Assembly: GCA_024672275.1 (NCBI GenBank)
Contig: GCA_024672275.1_4536.1
Source: a phage
Length of the DNA: 64,000 nt
Reading direction: 5' to 3' (one strand)
This document shows positions 1,957-14,824 of the stretch, piece after piece. Made by a program: the position numbers and the translations under genes. The notes under the pieces are model-generated. The model saw only the letters and a list, made by a program, of their open reading frames with translations, ran no database searches and had not been told where the DNA came from. Within the stretch, counting starts at the first letter, position 1, and every line of letters starts with the position of its first letter.

Positions 1957-2031
1957 GGCCCTGTAGCTCAATGGGAGAGCTGTCGGCTCATAACCGATAG
2001 GTAGCTGGATCGAAACCAGCCAGGGCCACCA
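1957..2031 (+). tRNA. tRNA-Met (anticodon CAT), elongator-type
   Basis: acceptor ggccctg/cagggcc, D-arm gctc..gagc, anticodon loop ctCATaa, T-arm gctgg/ccagc, encoded CCA. Confidence 0.75.
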
Positions 2032-2033
2032 AC

Positions 2034-2108
2034 GTCTTTATGGTGTAATGGATAGCACAGGAGTCTTCTAAACTCTTAGTCAAGGTTCGATTCCTTGTAA
2101 AGACACCA
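2034..2108 (+). tRNA. tRNA-Arg (anticodon TCT)
   Basis: acceptor gtcttta/taaagac, anticodon loop ctTCTaa, T-arm caagg-ttcgatt-ccttg, encoded CCA. Confidence 0.7.
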
Positions 2109-2304
2109 GAACATTTTAACATGAATTAGCTCAAGTGATTTGAACCCACTACTGATCATGGTGGCAGAGAATGAGGCAAGTATGTCAGACATTATAAACA
2201 AAGGCCACGGTTATATTAGAAGACATAAATGCTCGAAGAGCACCGTTCGTTGAGAACGGTGGTTGGTGGAGTCACCATTCATGGTAAAATGTTTTAAAAA
2301 ACTA

Positions 2305-2334
2305 TTGACAACTAACATTATTTTATGTTAGATT
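2305..2334 (+). promoter_or_regulatory. sigma70-like promoter
   Basis: 'actattgaca' -35 at 2305-2310, weak -10 (ttagat/tagatt) 17-18 nt downstream; immediately precedes tRNA-Ser. Confidence 0.4.
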
Positions 2335-2342
2335 ATAAGTAT

Positions 2343-2433
2343 GGAAGGGCAAATCGACGTGGCGACGAAAACGGTCTTGAAAACCGCCGAGCTTGAAAGA
2401 GCCTTGGGAGTTCGACTCTCCCTCCTTCCGCCA
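2343..2433 (+). tRNA. tRNA-Ser (anticodon TGA), type II
   Basis: acceptor ggaaggg/tccttcc, anticodon arm cggtCTTGAAAaccg as in E. coli tRNA-Ser, long variable arm, T-arm gggag-ttcgact-ctccc, CCA. Confidence 0.7.
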
Positions 2434-2437
2434 GATT

Positions 2438-2523
2438 GGTAGATTGGTGAAATGGTAGCCACGACAGTTTGCTAAACTGTAGTCGGAAACGGCGTGTAGG
2501 TTCGAGTCCTACATCTACCGCCA
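2438..2523 (+). tRNA. tRNA-Ser (anticodon GCT), type II
   Basis: acceptor ggtagat/atctacc, anticodon stem acagt/actgt with loop ttGCTaa, long variable arm, T-arm gtagg-ttcgagt-cctac, CCA. Confidence 0.75.
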
Positions 2524-2653
2524 AGTTCTTTTTAATATAGCTTACTTTAATAGAGTAAACTTTCGGCAGATGGCCCCCACCATCTTACCGATACCTCATA
2601 GTTAGTGGTGCGAACACTGGCTATTTTAAAAAGAATTTAAATATTAGTATTTA

Positions 2654-2741
2654 GGTGAGTTAATTCCGTAGGGGTAGCGGGGCAGACTGTAAATCTGTTA
2701 TCATTGCGATTCGGGTGGTTCGACTCCATCACTCACCACCA
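2654..2741 (+). tRNA. tRNA-Tyr (anticodon GTA), type II
   Basis: acceptor ggtgagt/actcacc; anticodon arm gcagaCTGTAAAtctg nearly identical to E. coli tRNA-Tyr; long variable arm; CCA. Confidence 0.8.
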
Positions 2742-2747
2742 AATTAA

Positions 2748-2833
2748 GATGAGTTGGCTGAACGGTTTAAGCGGCGGACTGTTAATCCGTGTTCGAAAGA
2801 ACGATATAGGTTCAAATCCTATACTCATCGCCA
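2748..2833 (+). tRNA. unusual tRNA: Asn anticodon arm (GTT) on a type-II scaffold with long variable-arm hairpin
   Basis: acceptor gatgagt/actcatc (7 bp), 3-bp D-stem, anticodon arm gcggaCTGTTAAtccgt (as in E. coli tRNA-Asn), 15-nt variable arm with gttc-gaaa-gaac hairpin, T-arm atagg-ttcaaat-cctat, CCA. Confidence 0.55.
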
Positions 2834-2840
2834 GAATTAT

Positions 2841-2917
2841 GGACTTGTAGAGTTAAGGTAAACCCCCAGTCGCCAAGAGGCTTCTGGAATTGCAGGTATC
2901 GAATCCTGCCGAGTCCC
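2841..2917 (+). tRNA. tRNA-like element, non-canonical (8-nt T-loop, no clean anticodon arm); possible pseudo-tRNA
   Basis: acceptor-like ggacttg/cgagtcc and T-arm gcagg-tatcgaat-cctgc, but D and anticodon arms do not fold canonically; no encoded CCA. Confidence 0.3.
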
Positions 2918-2923
2918 AGCTTT

Positions 2924-2998
2924 GCTCCTATAGTATAATGGCTATTACAACGGTTTTGTAATCCGTGGATCTCTGTTCGATTCAGAGTGGGAGCACCA
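2924..2998 (+). tRNA. tRNA-Thr (anticodon TGT)
   Basis: acceptor gctccta/tgggagc, anticodon loop ttTGTaa (stem with one U-U mismatch), T-arm ctctg-ttcgatt-cagag, CCA. Confidence 0.6.
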
Positions 2999-3271
2999 AT
3001 ACAACATTAAGGGCACTGTGATTGATCGTCGTATCCTGTGCACAAGGTCTGCTCGAAAGACAGTGTTCTTAGTATTGTGTTGATCACACAAAGAGTTACC
3101 TGAAACTTGACCGGAGTAGGGTTGGATGGGGCAAAAGAAGAAGCGGCTCTCCCATCGACAGCAACGAAGAATAATATTTGACTTTGGTTTTGTATTATTT
3201 TAAGTTAGCTTACCGAACGTAGGGCTAGTCACCCAATGGGATACTCGTCACTGTCCCACTCAATAAAACTA

Positions 3272-3301
3272 TTGACAACCAATAGTAAAATGTAGTATAG
3301 T
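3272..3301 (+). promoter_or_regulatory. sigma70-like promoter
   Basis: 'actattgaca' -35 at 3272-3277, 18-nt spacer, tatagt -10 at 3296-3301; tRNA-Gly starts 12 nt downstream. Confidence 0.55.
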
Positions 3302-3312
3302 AAAGATGTAGG

Positions 3313-3386
3313 GCGTTCTTGGTGTAGCGGTAGCATTCCGTCCTTCCAAGTCGGCGGCACGAGTTCGATCCTCGTAGAACGCTCCA
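3313..3386 (+). tRNA. tRNA-Gly (anticodon TCC)
   Basis: acceptor gcgttct/agaacgc, anticodon loop ctTCCaa, T-arm acgag-ttcgatc-ctcgt, CCA. Confidence 0.8.
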
Positions 3387-3484
3387 AATTATTTAATAAA
3401 GGGTTGCCAGAAAACTTTCTCTTTTACTCATGGTTTTCTCCTTCTCTCACACCTCTTCTGGTTGCCCTTCATTAAATGATTTAT

Positions 3485-3560
3485 TGGTTTGTAGTGTAGT
3501 CCGGTAGCACACGACACTTTGACTGTCGTAGGTTTGGTTCAAATCCAGACAGACCAGCCA
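3485..3560 (+). tRNA. tRNA-Gln (anticodon TTG)
   Basis: acceptor tggtttg/cagacca (U1-A72), D-arm gtgt/acac, anticodon stem cgaca/tgtcg with loop ctTTGac, T-arm tttgg-ttcaaat-ccaga, CCA. Confidence 0.7.
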
Positions 3561-3565
3561 TATAA

Positions 3566-3642
3566 CGGAATTTAGCTCAGTTTGGTAGAGCATACGCTTT
3601 GGGAGCGTAGGGTCGCAGGTTCGAATCCTGCAATTCCGACCA
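3566..3642 (+). tRNA. tRNA-Pro (anticodon TGG)
   Basis: acceptor cggaatt/aattccg, D-arm gctc..gagc, anticodon loop ttTGGga, T-arm gcagg-ttcgaat-cctgc, CCA; close to E. coli tRNA-Pro. Confidence 0.85.
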
Positions 3643-3648
3643 ATCAAA

Positions 3649-3722
3649 TGTTTCGTAGTTCAATGGTAGAACCCACGACTGATAATCGTGAGACACAAGT
3701 TCGATTCTTGTCGAAACAACCA
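3649..3722 (+). tRNA. tRNA-Ile (anticodon GAT)
   Basis: acceptor tgtttcg/cgaaaca, D-arm gttc/gaac, anticodon stem cacga/tcgtg with loop ctGATaa, T-arm acaag-ttcgatt-cttgt, CCA. Confidence 0.8.
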
Positions 3723-3724
3723 GT

Positions 3725-3794
3725 TTCCCGTTAGACTTACAGGATAAGAGTTCCACAACTTATTGTGATGCTGGTTCGAATCCAGCACGGGATA
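3725..3794 (+). tRNA. tRNA-like element with oversized (10-nt) anticodon-region loop; possible pseudo-tRNA or non-canonical tRNA
   Basis: canonical T-arm gctgg-ttcgaat-ccagc and cccg/cggg acceptor pairing; internal stem ataag/cttat encloses agttccacaa; no CCA. Confidence 0.3.
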
Positions 3795-3800
3795 CATAAT

Positions 3801-3879
3801 AGCGGGATAGAGGAGTCTGGTCGTCCTCGCCAGTTTCATATGCTGGAGATCATCGGTTCAAATCCGATTCCCGCCTCCA
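3801..3879 (+). tRNA. tRNA-Met (anticodon CAT), initiator-like
   Basis: anticodon loop ttCATat; T-arm atcgg-ttcaaat-ccgat as in E. coli tRNA-fMet; unpaired A1-C72; CCA encoded. Confidence 0.65.
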
Positions 3880-3994
3880 AATATCGCTTGCCAGCGGTAT
3901 CTTTGAAGACCTTGCCTGGTTCCTTCTAAGATGGAGGGGTGCGACTCCTTAACGCACAATTATAATAAAGCATTTCAAATTAACAGTATTTATT

Positions 3995-4018
3995 AGCCTC
4001 CTTATTGGAGGCTTTTTG
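3995..4018 (+). terminator. rho-independent terminator closing the tRNA cluster
   Basis: agcctcc-ttatt-ggaggct hairpin followed by TTTTT. Confidence 0.7.
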
Positions 4019-7558: not shown

Positions 7559-9124
7559 GTGTCAACAGGAAAAAGAACGTACACTAAAAAGTCAGAATAC
7601 TGGGACAAAGGTGCTGCAAATAAAGCTGCTCTCTCTCCAACAAAAGAGGCAGAGAAAGAGAAAACGTTACTCCTGTCACCTGAAATAGGAACGATCGGAT
7701 TAAACTCAATCAAAGCATTTACGAATTTCATGCAACCTTATGAGACTCGTTTCCCAGAATGTATTCGCACTTTTAAAGAGATGGGTGAAGACCCTGATGT
7801 AGCTACTGCTCTTGACGCTACATATATCTTTGTAGATAGAGCATTCTTTGATTTCAAGATAAAATACAATGTAAACTCGGCAAAGTCAAGAAAAGCTGCT
7901 AAGTTTATTGATTACATGTTGCGCAATATGCAAGCCCCTCTACGTCAATATGTTAGATCACTTTTGACATATAAGCAATACGGTTTTGCATTCGCAGAGA
8001 AAGTTTATGAGTTGGATGAAGACCCTAAAAGTCCTTACTTTGGGTATTGGCGATTAACCAAACTGGCTTTTAGACCACAAGACACTCTTCACATGGCTCA
8101 ACCTTTTACATATTCGGCAGACGGACGTTCTATTCTATCTGTTAACCAGAATATCACCAATACAATGTTAGCTCCAGGCAATACAACTTTAGAAACTGGT
8201 ATTAAAGAAATTCCTTTCAGTAAAGTTTTATTTGTTGGTAGCAACATTACAGAGAACAACCCACTAGGAGTTAGTCCGCTTTTAGCTGTATATCGTAGCT
8301 GGCGTGAAAAATCTCTTATTCAGGAATTTGAGGTTATTGGGGTATCTAAAGATTTAGGCGGTATGCCAGTTCTTAAGGTTCCAAGTGACATTCTAAACAG
8401 GGCATCTTTAGATCCTGCGGGGGATGAAGCACAATCTCTTCGAGTTCTCCAAGCCAACATCGCTAACCTGCACTCTGGTGAGCAAGCCTACATGGTATTG
8501 CCTTCAGACGTTTATGAAGGCACAGTGATGCGTCAATACGATCTTGTATTCCAAGGTGTTGATGGCACGGGTAAACAGTTTGACACTCAAGCACTAATCA
8601 AACAACGCAAGCTAGATATTTATAACCGCTTTGGTGCGGGTGTGTTGATTATGGGTGATGGTGATGCAGGAAGTTTTGCGCTTTCTGACAACAAACAAAC
8701 ACTATTGTCTCATTTTATTGAGCGAGATGTAGATATTGTTGTAGAAGCTATAAACTCTCAACTGATCCCTCAAACACTACGACTAAACAATATCTTCCTT
8801 TCTGATGAAGATATGCCTAAGTTTGTCAGTGGTGAAATGGGTGATCCTGATATTGAAGTAAATGCTAAAGCTATTCAGCAGTTGGTAGCCTCTGGTGCAA
8901 TACCTTTAACCCCAGAAGTTATTAACGAGTTCCTTGAAAAAATTGGTTTTGAATATCGCATCCCTGACGATATTGTTGCCAATAAAGAGAAATTCTTTGA
9001 ATTCATGGATAACTATATGCCTGACAAAACTTCACGATCAGGAGATGGTTTAGCTACAGCGGGAACTGGAACATCTGATACTGTTTCTGCTTTAGATCCT
9101 TCAGCACAAAACCTGTCGAATTAA
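7559..9124 (+). CDS. putative portal protein
   Basis: 521 aa; GTG start with GGAGGA RBS; position immediately after terminase large subunit in a lambda-like head module. Confidence 0.55.
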   Translation: MSTGKRTYTKKSEYWDKGAANKAALSPTKEAEKEKTLLLSPEIGTIGLNSIKAFTNFMQPYETRFPECIRTFKEMGEDPDVATALDATYIFVDRAFFDFKIKYNVNSAKSRKAAKFIDYMLRNMQAPLRQYVRSLLTYKQYGFAFAEKVYELDEDPKSPYFGYWRLTKLAFRPQDTLHMAQPFTYSADGRSILSVNQNITNTMLAPGNTTLETGIKEIPFSKVLFVGSNITENNPLGVSPLLAVYRSWREKSLIQEFEVIGVSKDLGGMPVLKVPSDILNRASLDPAGDEAQSLRVLQANIANLHSGEQAYMVLPSDVYEGTVMRQYDLVFQGVDGTGKQFDTQALIKQRKLDIYNRFGAGVLIMGDGDAGSFALSDNKQTLLSHFIERDVDIVVEAINSQLIPQTLRLNNIFLSDEDMPKFVSGEMGDPDIEVNAKAIQQLVASGAIPLTPEVINEFLEKIGFEYRIPDDIVANKEKFFEFMDNYMPDKTSRSGDGLATAGTGTSDTVSALDPSAQNLSN

Positions 9125-13776: not shown

Positions 13777-14193
13777 GTGTTACTAGATCAATTTACTCTC
13801 CTTGATCTAACTGAATACCAAGGTCGTAGACGAGTCTACAAAGAGGCAGTTGGTTCAGTTATTGCTAACTTAGAAAGTAGTGTAGAATATGAACCATTTA
13901 CTATTGAAGCGGCAAGCTTACAACCGATATCTGGTAAAACACTGAATGCACTACCTGAAGGTTACAGATCTAAGGCTCAATATAGTTTCTGGACTAAAAC
14001 AGAAATGAAGGGGTTACAACAAGGAACAGAACAGTTATCAGATCAGATATTGATAGATGGTAAATGGTATTCTGTTTATTCCCTTAAAGATTGGACCAGA
14101 ACATCTTTCTTAGTCCATCATCACTGTGTTGCGATATTAGACGATCAAAACAACTCCTGGTCTTATGGAACAGAAGGAGGAAACTTTGGCTAA
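13777..14193 (+). CDS. hypothetical structural protein
   Basis: GTG 13777 with AAGGAG 7 nt upstream (ORF-track start 13744 has no RBS). Confidence 0.45.
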   Translation: MLLDQFTLLDLTEYQGRRRVYKEAVGSVIANLESSVEYEPFTIEAASLQPISGKTLNALPEGYRSKAQYSFWTKTEMKGLQQGTEQLSDQILIDGKWYSVYSLKDWTRTSFLVHHHCVAILDDQNNSWSYGTEGGNFG

Positions 14194-14824
14194 TATTTAC
14201 CAACAAATAGAAGCATACGAAAATGCCATCTACTTAAATATAGGTGGCTTCCTTCAAGAATTAGTGGGGTTGCCAGTCTATGTTATGGATAAGCCATTCA
14301 TTAAACCGGATACTCCTTACCTAGCACTACGTATTATCACTTCCAGCGATTCTGGAGGTTGGTCTTACCGAAGCTCTATTCAAAATGATATGTATTCCTA
14401 CGAGATGGATAATACCTACGAGATTGAACTTGTAGCCTATCGTGGAAGACCTACCACTTTGATGAGCTATGTTCTGGCTGCTCTCCGTGGTGCAGAGGAA
14501 TTAAAATACAAACATCTCTATTCTAAAGGTCTTGGTTTTTTAGGAGCCTCTAATATAGCTCAAGCCAATACGATTGTAGACGGAGATAAGACTGAATTAA
14601 GAGCGCGTATGGTTATGACGTTCAACACTCGTATGAGTATTGAAGATATTGCTACTACACCAATAGAAGCAATCAACATGCACATCCGTTCATTCAGAGA
14701 TAGTTACAATGATCCTATCCCTTTAGATTTAATTCTAAACAGGGTTTATGCAATTACTTTGGTTCCAGGCGAATACTCGTCAGTTAATCAAAATGGATCA
14801 TTATTTAACAACCCTACCGAATAA
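14165..14824 (+). CDS. hypothetical structural protein (tail completion region)
   Basis: 219 aa ORF; true start may be in-frame TTG 14186 just after AGGAGG 14175-14180. Confidence 0.45.
   Translation: MEQKEETLANIYQQIEAYENAIYLNIGGFLQELVGLPVYVMDKPFIKPDTPYLALRIITSSDSGGWSYRSSIQNDMYSYEMDNTYEIELVAYRGRPTTLMSYVLAALRGAEELKYKHLYSKGLGFLGASNIAQANTIVDGDKTELRARMVMTFNTRMSIEDIATTPIEAINMHIRSFRDSYNDPIPLDLILNRVYAITLVPGEYSSVNQNGSLFNNPTE

Follow-up and report, generated by a model that had tools for sequence, protein, structure and literature searches.

The transfer RNA (tRNA) clusters of phages contain RNAs that are not tRNAs, which have been unexplained since the T4/T5 era and which modern annotation pipelines leave unreported. 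In T5 and BF23, such RNAs of 103-784 nucleotides (nt) are interspersed in the cluster (rna1, rna2, rnaI, rnaIII, rnaIV, rna2H and rnaX); rna1 and rna2 finish with a T arm and an acceptor stem, and rnaX holds a tRNA-like segment. The T4 cluster ends with two small stable RNAs that are matured via the tRNA-processing pathway, species 1 and 2 (rnaC and rnaD; 139 and 119 nt), annotated as co-transcribed with the tRNAs. T5 and BF23 also have RNA3, which is annotated as misc_RNA rna3/RNA3 in T5 (GenBank AY734508.1, 197-269) and carries the note 'tRNA-like RNA with unknown functions' in BF23 (NC_042564.1, 6619-6692), both records having been deposited by the laboratory that sequenced the tRNA regions of these two phages. 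Here we analyzed two tRNA-like elements, element 1 (77 nt, 2841-2917) and element 2 (70 nt, 3725-3794), in a 64,000-nt stretch of phage DNA (contig GCA_024672275.1_4536.1; the window), and found that both are conserved four-way-junction RNAs in which the tRNA parts used in processing have been kept and the decoding part has been lost. Both are shorter than the non-tRNA RNAs of T5 and BF23 listed above, and element 1 is an orthologue of RNA3.

Neither element is homologous to T4 rnaC or rnaD, on which our covariance models R1 (the element-2 family model) and R2 scored at most 15.5 bits with filters off. The tRNA-like domain of transfer-messenger RNA (tmRNA), the YrlA module and mascRNA use a tRNA shape for processing or protein binding without decoding, and are functional analogies only. 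ARAGORN found no tmRNA in the window, and G3:U70 is absent from both elements; the only match to YrlA (RF02553) scored 22.8 bits against a gathering score of 69 and spanned tRNA-Pro to tRNA-Ile rather than the elements, while the matches to mascRNA were far below threshold and lay on true tRNAs, not on the elements.

Structure of the two elements

Over the 2.8 kb around both elements the window shares 99.6% identity with Escherichia phage anhysbys and some 150 further Phapecoctavirus genomes, and its source is a Phapecoctavirus (Stephanstirmvirinae; phAPEC8-like Escherichia coli myophages with genomes of roughly 150 kb). The original prediction had placed two non-canonical elements with tRNA-like acceptor and T-arm pairing in the tRNA cluster, and this was confirmed: both lie on the + strand, each between two canonical tRNA genes. 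Run on short slices of the window, the Rfam tRNA model aligned the acceptor and T arms of both at exactly 2841-2917 and 3725-3794 and bypassed the anticodon region as an insertion. The scores were 20.3 bits for element 1 (E-value 0.021) and 25.2 bits for element 2 (E-value 8.5e-4), relative to a gathering score of 29 and to 39-72 bits for the canonical neighbours. When Rfam models were compared with both elements at E-values up to 10, only the tRNA model was returned, plus noise. ARAGORN called neither element in the window, and neither is annotated in the three GenBank records that we inspected or in the records of the element-1 BLAST table. The minimum free energies of the predicted folds were -27.6 kcal/mol for element 1 (z = -3.6) and -20.8 kcal/mol for element 2 (z = -3.05), and in neither case was any of 200 dinucleotide shuffles as stable. 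The open reading frames that overlap the elements, which are of 66 amino acids or fewer and cross tRNA genes, were dismissed. The parts of the two elements are as follows.

2841-2917, + strand: element 1, a 77-nt tRNA-like RNA gene, orthologue of T5/BF23 RNA3 (Rfam 20.3 bits, RNA3 model, blastn)
2841-2847, + strand: element 1 acceptor 5' strand GGACUUG, which pairs with 2910-2916 in 7 standard pairs
2850-2864, + strand: element 1 D arm, G-a-GUU AAGGUA AACC, with the motif UAGAGUUAAG(G)UAAACC
2866-2887, + strand: element 1 hairpin replacing the anticodon arm, CCAG-UC-GCC-AAGA-GGC-UU-CUGG, predicted fold with 4-nt loop AAGA
2892-2909, + strand: element 1 T arm, with a 5-base-pair (bp) stem GCAGG/CCUGC and the 8-nt loop UAUCGAAU at 2897-2904
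2910-2917, + strand: element 1 acceptor 3' strand CGAGUCC plus discriminator C, followed by AGCUUU, without CCA
3725-3794, + strand: element 2, a 70-nt tRNA-like RNA gene (Rfam 25.2 bits, family model R1)
3725-3731, + strand: element 2 acceptor 5' strand UUCCCGU, which pairs with 3787-3793 (ACGGGAU), with a U.U mismatch at 1:72 in this lineage
3734-3753, + strand: element 2 D arm, GA / CUUA-CAGGA-UAAG / 3-nt bulge AGU / UC, the most conserved part of the family, UAGGCUUA..GG.UAAG
3754-3767, + strand: element 2 hairpin replacing the anticodon arm, CACAA-CUUA-UUGUG, comparative fold with a 4-nt loop
3770-3786, + strand: element 2 T arm, GCUGG-UUCGAAU-CCAGC, with a canonical 7-nt T-loop and 2 of 5 pairs compensatory
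3787-3794, + strand: element 2 acceptor 3' strand plus discriminator A, followed by CAUAAU, without CCA (CCU in other isolates)

With canonical tRNAs (RF00005), the two elements have in common a four-way junction like that of the cloverleaf, an acceptor stem of 7 bp, U8-A9 and a T arm, and element 2 shares in addition the UUCGAAU T-loop and the GG in the D loop. They differ from canonical tRNAs in scoring below the gathering score and in having no 7-nt anticodon loop; element 1 departs further in its 8-nt T-loop and bulged D stem, and element 2 in an additional G preceding the D stem, a 5-nt stretch from D stem to hairpin and a variable region of 2 nt. The T-loop UAUCGAAU of element 1 departs from the canonical 7-nt UUCRANY, to which that of element 2 conforms. 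That element 1 has an 8-nt T-loop (TATCGAAT) had been predicted correctly, and the length is the same in every homologue. The prediction that it lacks a clean anticodon arm was right in that there is no 7-nt anticodon loop, but a clean hairpin is present in the anticodon position.

For element 2, the stem ATAAG/CTTAT with a 10-nt loop that had been proposed is not the conserved fold. We rejected it because it is specific to the window and because its 5' strand is the 3' half of the conserved D stem; the comparative data point instead to a D arm and, after it, a hairpin whose loop has 4 nt. The outer pair of this D arm, G-C elsewhere, has become A-U in the window lineage, a single compensatory event that yields GA/UC in Phapecoctavirus. 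An alternative pairing of the D region that RNAalifold offered, GGA/UCC, is less likely, as the common polymorphism 27U>A breaks it; the D-region fold modelled here (outer GG/CC plus a 3-nt bulge) is nevertheless tentative.

A further claim, that neither element encodes CCA, unlike its twelve canonical neighbours, is true in the window, where all 12 canonical tRNAs of the cluster have CCA encoded at the 3' end, but it is lineage-specific and not a defining trait. CCA is encoded directly after the discriminator in T5 RNA3 and in the element-2 homologues of phiEB49, KP8 and SonariX, and it stands at the 3' end of the acceptor stem in the element-2 copies of A73 and UPEC06. The Phapecoctavirus copies of element 2 lack an encoded CCA, and among isolates the 3' end varies between ACCA, ACCU and ACAU.

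Neither element can read a codon, because a closed hairpin with a small loop replaces the anticodon arm. The loops in the anticodon position are AAGA in element 1 and CUUA in element 2, of 4 nt each, and range from 3 to 9 nt in the homologues, across which no U33, R37 or anticodon is conserved; ARAGORN rejected every homologue except that of phiEB49, which it called 'Val(aac)'. The 7-bp acceptor stem and 5-bp T stem are present in both elements and are accompanied by covariation, as described below.

Conservation of the two families among phages

A blastn search with the segment Tyr-Asn-element 1-Thr gave 70%-identical matches in Justusliebigvirus ESCO32, and matches in T5-like phages that cover tRNA-Asn and run on through element 1. 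The ESCO32 copy, between tRNA-Asn and tRNA-Thr, reads GUGCUUG-UAGAGUUAAUAGAAACC-UCUAGA-AUUU-UCUAGA-AUU-GUAGG-UAUCAAAU-CCUAC-CAAGCA, and the copy of the T5-like phage EC104, after tRNA-Asn, reads UUCUGUG-UAGAGUUAAGUAAACC-GGUAGC-CAACCA-GCUAUC-AUU-GCUGA-CAUCGAAU-CCAGC-CACAGAU-A-CCA. A search with the EC104 copy found 354 T5-like records that carry the element. In the window, T5, BF23, EC104 and ESCO32, it stands directly 3' of tRNA-Asn on the same strand.

In a MAFFT alignment of 12 sequences of this family, G7-UAGAGUUAAG(G)UAAACC was almost invariant and the AUU linker after the hairpin invariant, and all 12 had a T-loop of 8 nt (YAUCRAAU in 11, UAUUGAAU in NG_S8). The acceptor stem, T stem and central hairpin differ in sequence while their pairing is kept, and the hairpins, such as UCUAGA-AUUU-UCUAGA in ESCO32 and GGUAGC-CAACCA-GCUAUC in T5, are unrelated to one another. 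Standard pairs filled 93.7% of the cells of the cloverleaf, as against 27-48% when the 3' partners were slid by 1-3 columns, and compensatory changes on both sides were seen in 11 of 21 pairs (4 of 7 in the acceptor stem, 4 of 5 in the T stem and 3 of the 5 shared pairs of the central hairpin). The pairs of the D stem never vary, and this stem is neither supported nor refuted by covariation. Of the 15 pairs that RNAalifold independently predicted, which form the acceptor stem, central hairpin and T arm, 10 were compensatory.

As a non-circular test of the relationship, we built an RNA3 model (R3) from six T5-like copies alone. Its best match in the window was element 1 (39.1 bits, E-value 1.4e-9), and it gave 42.6 bits in ESCO32; the margin was modest, the next match being the true tRNA-Met at 1957 with 33.8 bits, so that the score alone is not decisive. 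We consider the homology of element 1 and T5/BF23 RNA3 secure, because the R3 score is joined by shared motifs and by the conserved position after tRNA-Asn. The two share the D-region motif, a closed hairpin, the AUU linker, a 5-bp T stem with the 8-nt YAUCRAAU loop and a 7-bp acceptor stem. The sequences of acceptor, T stem and hairpin have fully diverged, though with compensation, and element 1 is longer (77 versus 73-74 nt) and has a longer hairpin. Its D loop contains GG where that of T5 and BF23 RNA3 contains a single G, and its 3' end reads ...UCC-C-AGC, without CCA, where T5 RNA3 ends ...GAU-A-CCA. Element 1 also has tRNAs on both sides, whereas RNA3 of T5-like phages precedes an open reading frame, with a Shine-Dalgarno sequence and ATG about 30 nt downstream. 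RNA3 is thus not peculiar to T5 but is conserved, with compensatory evolution, in rV5/phAPEC8-like myophages.

Two natural variants of this family were also observed. ESCO32 and PD06, both Justusliebigvirus, have identical Asn and Thr flanks but completely different element-1 alleles (1654-1727 and 1659-1735 of the examined stretches, respectively), PD06 carrying the allele of Phapecoctavirus; from these sequences, the difference looks like a cassette exchange by recombination. In Salmonella phage SP3 only the 3' half of RNA3 is left, comprising the T arm and the acceptor 3' strand (285-345 of the examined stretch), and the element can therefore be lost in nature.

Blastn from element 2 gave matches of 81-86% in the Vequintavirinae A73, W70, UPEC06 and LTH01, and a match of 79% to a gene annotated as tRNA-Val in the siphovirus phiEB49 (Drexlerviridae). 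Onward searching led to a gene annotated as tRNA-Leu in the N4-like Klebsiella phage KP8 (Schitoviridae) and to an unannotated stretch after tRNA-Gln in the 249-kb Enterobacter jumbo phage SonariX. The family therefore comprises five lineages (Phapecoctavirus, Vequintavirinae, Drexlerviridae, Schitoviridae and SonariX-like jumbo phages), and a second anticodon-less tRNA mimic is common to five unrelated enterobacterial phage lineages. We flag the 'tRNA-Val' of phiEB49 and the 'tRNA-Leu' of KP8 as mis-annotations.

As defined by a regular expression and model R1, the 13 distinct sequences of the element-2 family have one architecture. From the 5' end, it consists of a 7-bp acceptor, UA, G[G/A], CUUA, a 4-5-nt loop holding GG, UAAG, NNN and [C/U]C, followed by the hairpin, A[U/C], a T arm with UUCGAAU (UUCGACU in KP8), the acceptor strand and a discriminator that is A, C or G. 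The hairpins have 5-7 bp, loops of 3-9 nt and unrelated sequences. Of the cells in the alignment, 97.7% were paired, versus 36-45% when slid, and 12 of 25 pairs were compensatory, including 4 of 7 in the acceptor and, in the variable hairpin, whose loop padding was set by hand, 5 of 7. A plain MAFFT alignment gave the same outer five hairpin pairs in all sequences except that of phiEB49, and RNAalifold recovered the acceptor, hairpin and T arm from it. Members scored 76.7-88.9 bits with R1, and ordinary tRNAs at most 41.4 bits in the main search; in a later search of genome contigs, one bacterial tRNA-Lys, whose D arm resembles that of element 2, reached 48.1 bits.

INPHARED holds roughly 450 copies of RNA3 and roughly 100 of element 2. 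Scans for both elements by pattern in IMG/VR yielded almost nothing beyond known phages, and the single metagenome scan gave only near-identical Phapecoctavirus, KP8 and SonariX types and chance matches. The single bacterial-genome scan returned one phage-derived contig and one ordinary tRNA-Lys, and no host-encoded member of the family. In the tRNA regions of T5 and BF23 the element-2 model found no family member, its best matches being ordinary tRNAs of at most 41 bits. There is no specific relationship between elements 1 and 2, as their cross-scores of 19-29 bits are the same as those of ordinary tRNAs. Element 2 is a member of a separate, undescribed family that Rfam does not include; in general kind it resembles the tRNA-like RNAs of T5/BF23 and the T4 species 1 and 2 RNAs, but it is homologous to none of these. 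The tRNAs next to it differ by lineage (Ile, Tyr, Arg and Gln), and it therefore moves as an independent gene. KP8 and SonariX, alone among the five lineages, share two small proteins near it.

Variation within Phapecoctavirus was consistent with the comparisons between lineages. Paired positions make up 64% of the total but held only 4 of the 13 variable sites found in the two elements among 15 copies (binomial P = 0.016), and at 2 of these 4 the pair is kept. These results show that neither element is a decaying pseudogene, and that both belong to families conserved across distant phage lineages with compensated helices.

A few RNAs that came up in these comparisons are recorded here as observations. 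In the examined stretches of BF23 (14153-14224) and T5 (7752-7823), a tRNA-like segment with an aberrant anticodon region and an R1 score of 30-32 bits lies within the RNAX of about 0.7 kb; the T5 segment is a tRNA-Ser(act) according to ARAGORN. KP8 has a second tRNA-like gene (1251-1325 of the examined stretch), with the anticodon stem ACGAC/GUCGU and the 4-nt loop ACAG, which is annotated as tRNA-OTHER and which ARAGORN calls 'tRNA-???' with a 2-nt anticodon. Phage tRNA clusters may commonly hold anticodon-less tRNA mimics. In SonariX, the element-2 homologue is followed directly by an RNA-like stretch of about 100 nt (1590-1700 of the examined stretch) with a long closing stem, UUCAGAGUG...CACUCUGAA, and then CCA, which suggests, from its sequence, a further CCA-ending non-tRNA RNA.

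A proposed function and its alternatives

The reading that we favour, and in which our belief and doubt are evenly divided, is that each element is a functional gene whose product is a small, tRNA-shaped and non-decoding RNA that is processed and acts in trans. From what is established of tRNA processing, transcription from sigma-70-like promoters at 2305 and 3272 would cover each element together with its neighbouring tRNAs. The 5' end would be set free by RNase P, whose cut at the next tRNA would leave a 3' trailer of 6 nt for exonucleases to trim. T4 tRNAs without an encoded CCA receive it post-transcriptionally, and in the window lineage the host CCA-adding enzyme may likewise add CCA afterwards. 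A stable RNA of about 70-77 nt would result. The sites on which the transcription step is based are these.

2305-2334, + strand: promoter-like site TTGACA-18-TAGATT (10/12 matches), upstream of the transcription unit with element 1
3272-3301, + strand: promoter-like site TTGACA-18-TATAGT (11/12 matches), upstream of the unit with element 2
3995-4013, + strand: intrinsic-terminator-like hairpin at the end of the tRNA cluster

The positions of the promoter-like sites are the reason for assigning element 1 to the 2305 unit and element 2 to the 3272 unit. The scan was for the consensus only, and the region holds no more promoter-like sites than its shuffles do; those at 1718, 2305 and 3272 have the common context AAAACTATTGACA.

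More speculatively, the mature RNA could act through its tRNA body (acceptor, T arm, elbow region and conserved D arm) by occupying or titrating a protein that recognises the tRNA shape. The likeliest target might be a host tRNA-targeting defence or toxin nuclease, or an enzyme of tRNA maturation or surveillance, to which the RNA would offer no cleavable anticodon loop and no entry into translation. An accessory, host-dependent function of this kind would suit the conservation of the D arms, the mobility of element 2, the location of RNA3, its truncation in SP3 and the viability of T5 deletion strains. In both families the D arms are the most strongly conserved sequence, beyond what would be required of a minihelix substrate. 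The 8.2-kb stretch of T5 between the st0 deletion sites includes RNA3; T5 strains that have lost large parts of the tRNA region are viable, and phage tRNAs from this region, which these strains lack, counter PARIS (PMC11464382). Phage tRNA clusters are now viewed as counter-defence loci, whose tRNAs rescue translation when PARIS, retrons or other nucleases attack tRNAs, and the two elements are compact (about 75 nt), conserved, unannotated and easily deleted candidates for functional tests.

It is conceivable, although we think it rather unlikely, that anticodon-less mimics (of the RNA3 type, the element-2 type and the KP8 tetraloop 'tRNA-OTHER') make up a class of phage counter-defence RNAs that is widespread and exchanged horizontally. 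They would then act as uncleavable competitive inhibitors of host nucleases or toxins that recognise the tRNA shape, such as anticodon nucleases and acceptor-end modifiers. If this were so, the mimics would complement the known strategy of cleavage-resistant phage tRNAs, and the allele swap between PD06 and ESCO32 and the spread of element 2 over five lineages would reflect the dynamics of an arms race.

Several points weigh against our favoured reading. We found no expression, end-mapping or binding data for either RNA, and in literature searches no paper on either RNA3 or anticodon-less tRNA mimics of phages turned up; the description of T5 RNA3 as a stable RNA comes from GenBank annotations, and the decoy step is speculative. 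An all-versus-all blastp comparison of the open reading frames around element 2 in the five lineages revealed no shared neighbour, and hence no conserved partner protein. The discriminator base varies (C or A in the element-1 family; A, C or G in that of element 2) and CCA has been lost in the window lineage, which fits a role independent of the 3' end but fits relaxed constraint as well. With 3-5 independent lineages per family, the covariation counts rest on few events, and the alignment of the element-2 hairpin was padded by hand. In the element-1 family, the GG of the D loop is not conserved (AAGGUA, AAGUA, AAUAGA) and the T-loop has 8 nt, and a canonical elbow, and hence recognition as a tRNA, is for these two reasons uncertain.

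The original prediction offered three possibilities, namely pseudo-tRNAs, processing signals and tRNA-derived regulatory RNAs, of which the last, as a stable or regulatory RNA, came closest, element 1 being the orthologue of RNA3. As cis-acting processing or punctuation modules, the elements would attract RNase P and 3' enzymes so that the transcript is cut correctly or the end of a neighbour is defined or stabilised, and the excised RNA would be a by-product; we rate this as possible, but with the probabilities well against it. RNase P requires a minihelix of acceptor plus T arm, and this is the structural core that is conserved best; the central hairpin can vary in sequence and length. The idea is reasonable particularly for RNA3 of T5-like phages, which lies between tRNA-Asn and the Shine-Dalgarno sequence and ATG, where cleavage would define the 5' end of the mRNA. 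In the window, however, a processing signal is unneeded, since the true tRNAs that flank both elements already supply cleavage sites 2-7 nt away. Nor does it account for the strong conservation of the D arms, with which a minihelix substrate could dispense, and the changing neighbours of element 2 speak for an independent gene rather than an adjunct. Chance persistence of former tRNA genes with decayed anticodon arms is improbable in our view. It would explain the sub-threshold Rfam scores, the loss of CCA in this lineage, the truncated RNA3 of SP3 and the labels 'tRNA-OTHER' or 'Pseudo' that tRNAscan-based annotations give to similar objects. A decaying relic is contradicted by the recurrence of the aberrant architecture from Demerecviridae to Stephanstirmvirinae (element 1) and in five lineages (element 2), by stems kept through double substitutions, by replacement hairpins that always pair perfectly despite unrelated sequences, by polymorphisms that avoid paired sites and by the conservation of the odd 8-nt T-loop.

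The remaining two explanations would keep the elements closer to true tRNAs. A synthetase that is blind to the anticodon might charge them, so that the amino acid is donated to a non-translational acceptor or the synthetase is sequestered, and the intact acceptor stem and T arm and the CCA encoded in most lineages would permit this; the alanyl-, seryl- and leucyl-tRNA synthetases do not read the anticodon (review PMC9976931). A fixed aminoacylation identity is unlikely, since element 1 has A-U and element 2 has C-G at position 3:70 rather than the G3:U70 of Ala, there is no long variable arm (as in Ser and, in most organisms, Leu) and the variation of the discriminator within each family argues against a single synthetase identity. 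The lack of an encoded CCA in the window also counts against charging, to which we attach a low probability. Decoding through an unusual anticodon loop, as in a frameshift or suppressor tRNA, seems to us very improbable indeed. It is possible to draw the phiEB49 copy with a 7-nt loop, and its annotation is tRNA-Val(aac), that of the KP8 copy being tRNA-Leu, but these two published identities disagree, and the variable length and sequence of the loops, with no consistent anticodon, U33 or R37, do not suit such a role.

Context of the tRNA cluster

The cluster spans 1957-3879 on the + strand, where ARAGORN reported 10 tRNAs. It missed a Tyr(GTA) gene at 2654-2738, which the Rfam tRNA model added (39 bits), and a Ser(TGA) gene at 2343-2429, which matches the Rfam tRNA-Sec model only (37.4 bits versus a gathering score of 47) and is a tRNA-Ser by tRNAscan-SE annotation in the ASO2A record. 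Element 1 sits between Asn (2748-2833) and Thr (2924-2998), 7 nt after the former and 6 nt before the latter, and element 2 between Ile (3649-3722) and Met (3801-3879); the gaps to the flanking true tRNAs are 2-7 nt on both sides of both elements.

Some of these neighbours are themselves unusual. The tRNA-Asn(GTT) at 2748-2833 has 86 nt and an extra arm of about 12 nt in its variable region, which is unusual for a tRNA-Asn; the extra arm is also found in ESCO32 and the T5-like EC104, whereas T5 itself has a normal, short tRNA-Asn beside RNA3. The second Met gene (3801-3879) has A1 unpaired with position 72 and an enlarged D loop, and the tRNAscan-based annotation of Mt1B1_P17 marks both the Tyr and the second Met(CAT) genes as pseudogenes.

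The long spacers of the region (1748-1956, 2109-2300, 2524-2653, 2999-3270, 3387-3484 and 3880-3994) have elaborate predicted folds, with long terminal stems that close the structures; two examples are a spacer of 209 nt at -76.8 kcal/mol and one of 192 nt at -53.9 kcal/mol. The spacer at 2524-2653 is conserved in ESCO32 (96%), UPEC06 (82%) and A73 (80%). These spacers resemble the T5/BF23 'stable RNAs with unknown functions' (rnaI, rnaIII, rnaIV and rna2H), and BLAST of the structured spacers against the BF23 and T5 regions gave no similarity. Some Phapecoctavirus isolates have an insertion of about 90 nt between tRNA-Gln and tRNA-Pro. We considered that of ASO2A (90 nt; 2564-2656 of the examined stretch) as a third tRNA-like element and rejected it, since its sequence has the character of a structured spacer. 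The annotation of vB_EcoM_01 has a second tRNA-Pro at the corresponding site (957-1031 of the examined stretch).

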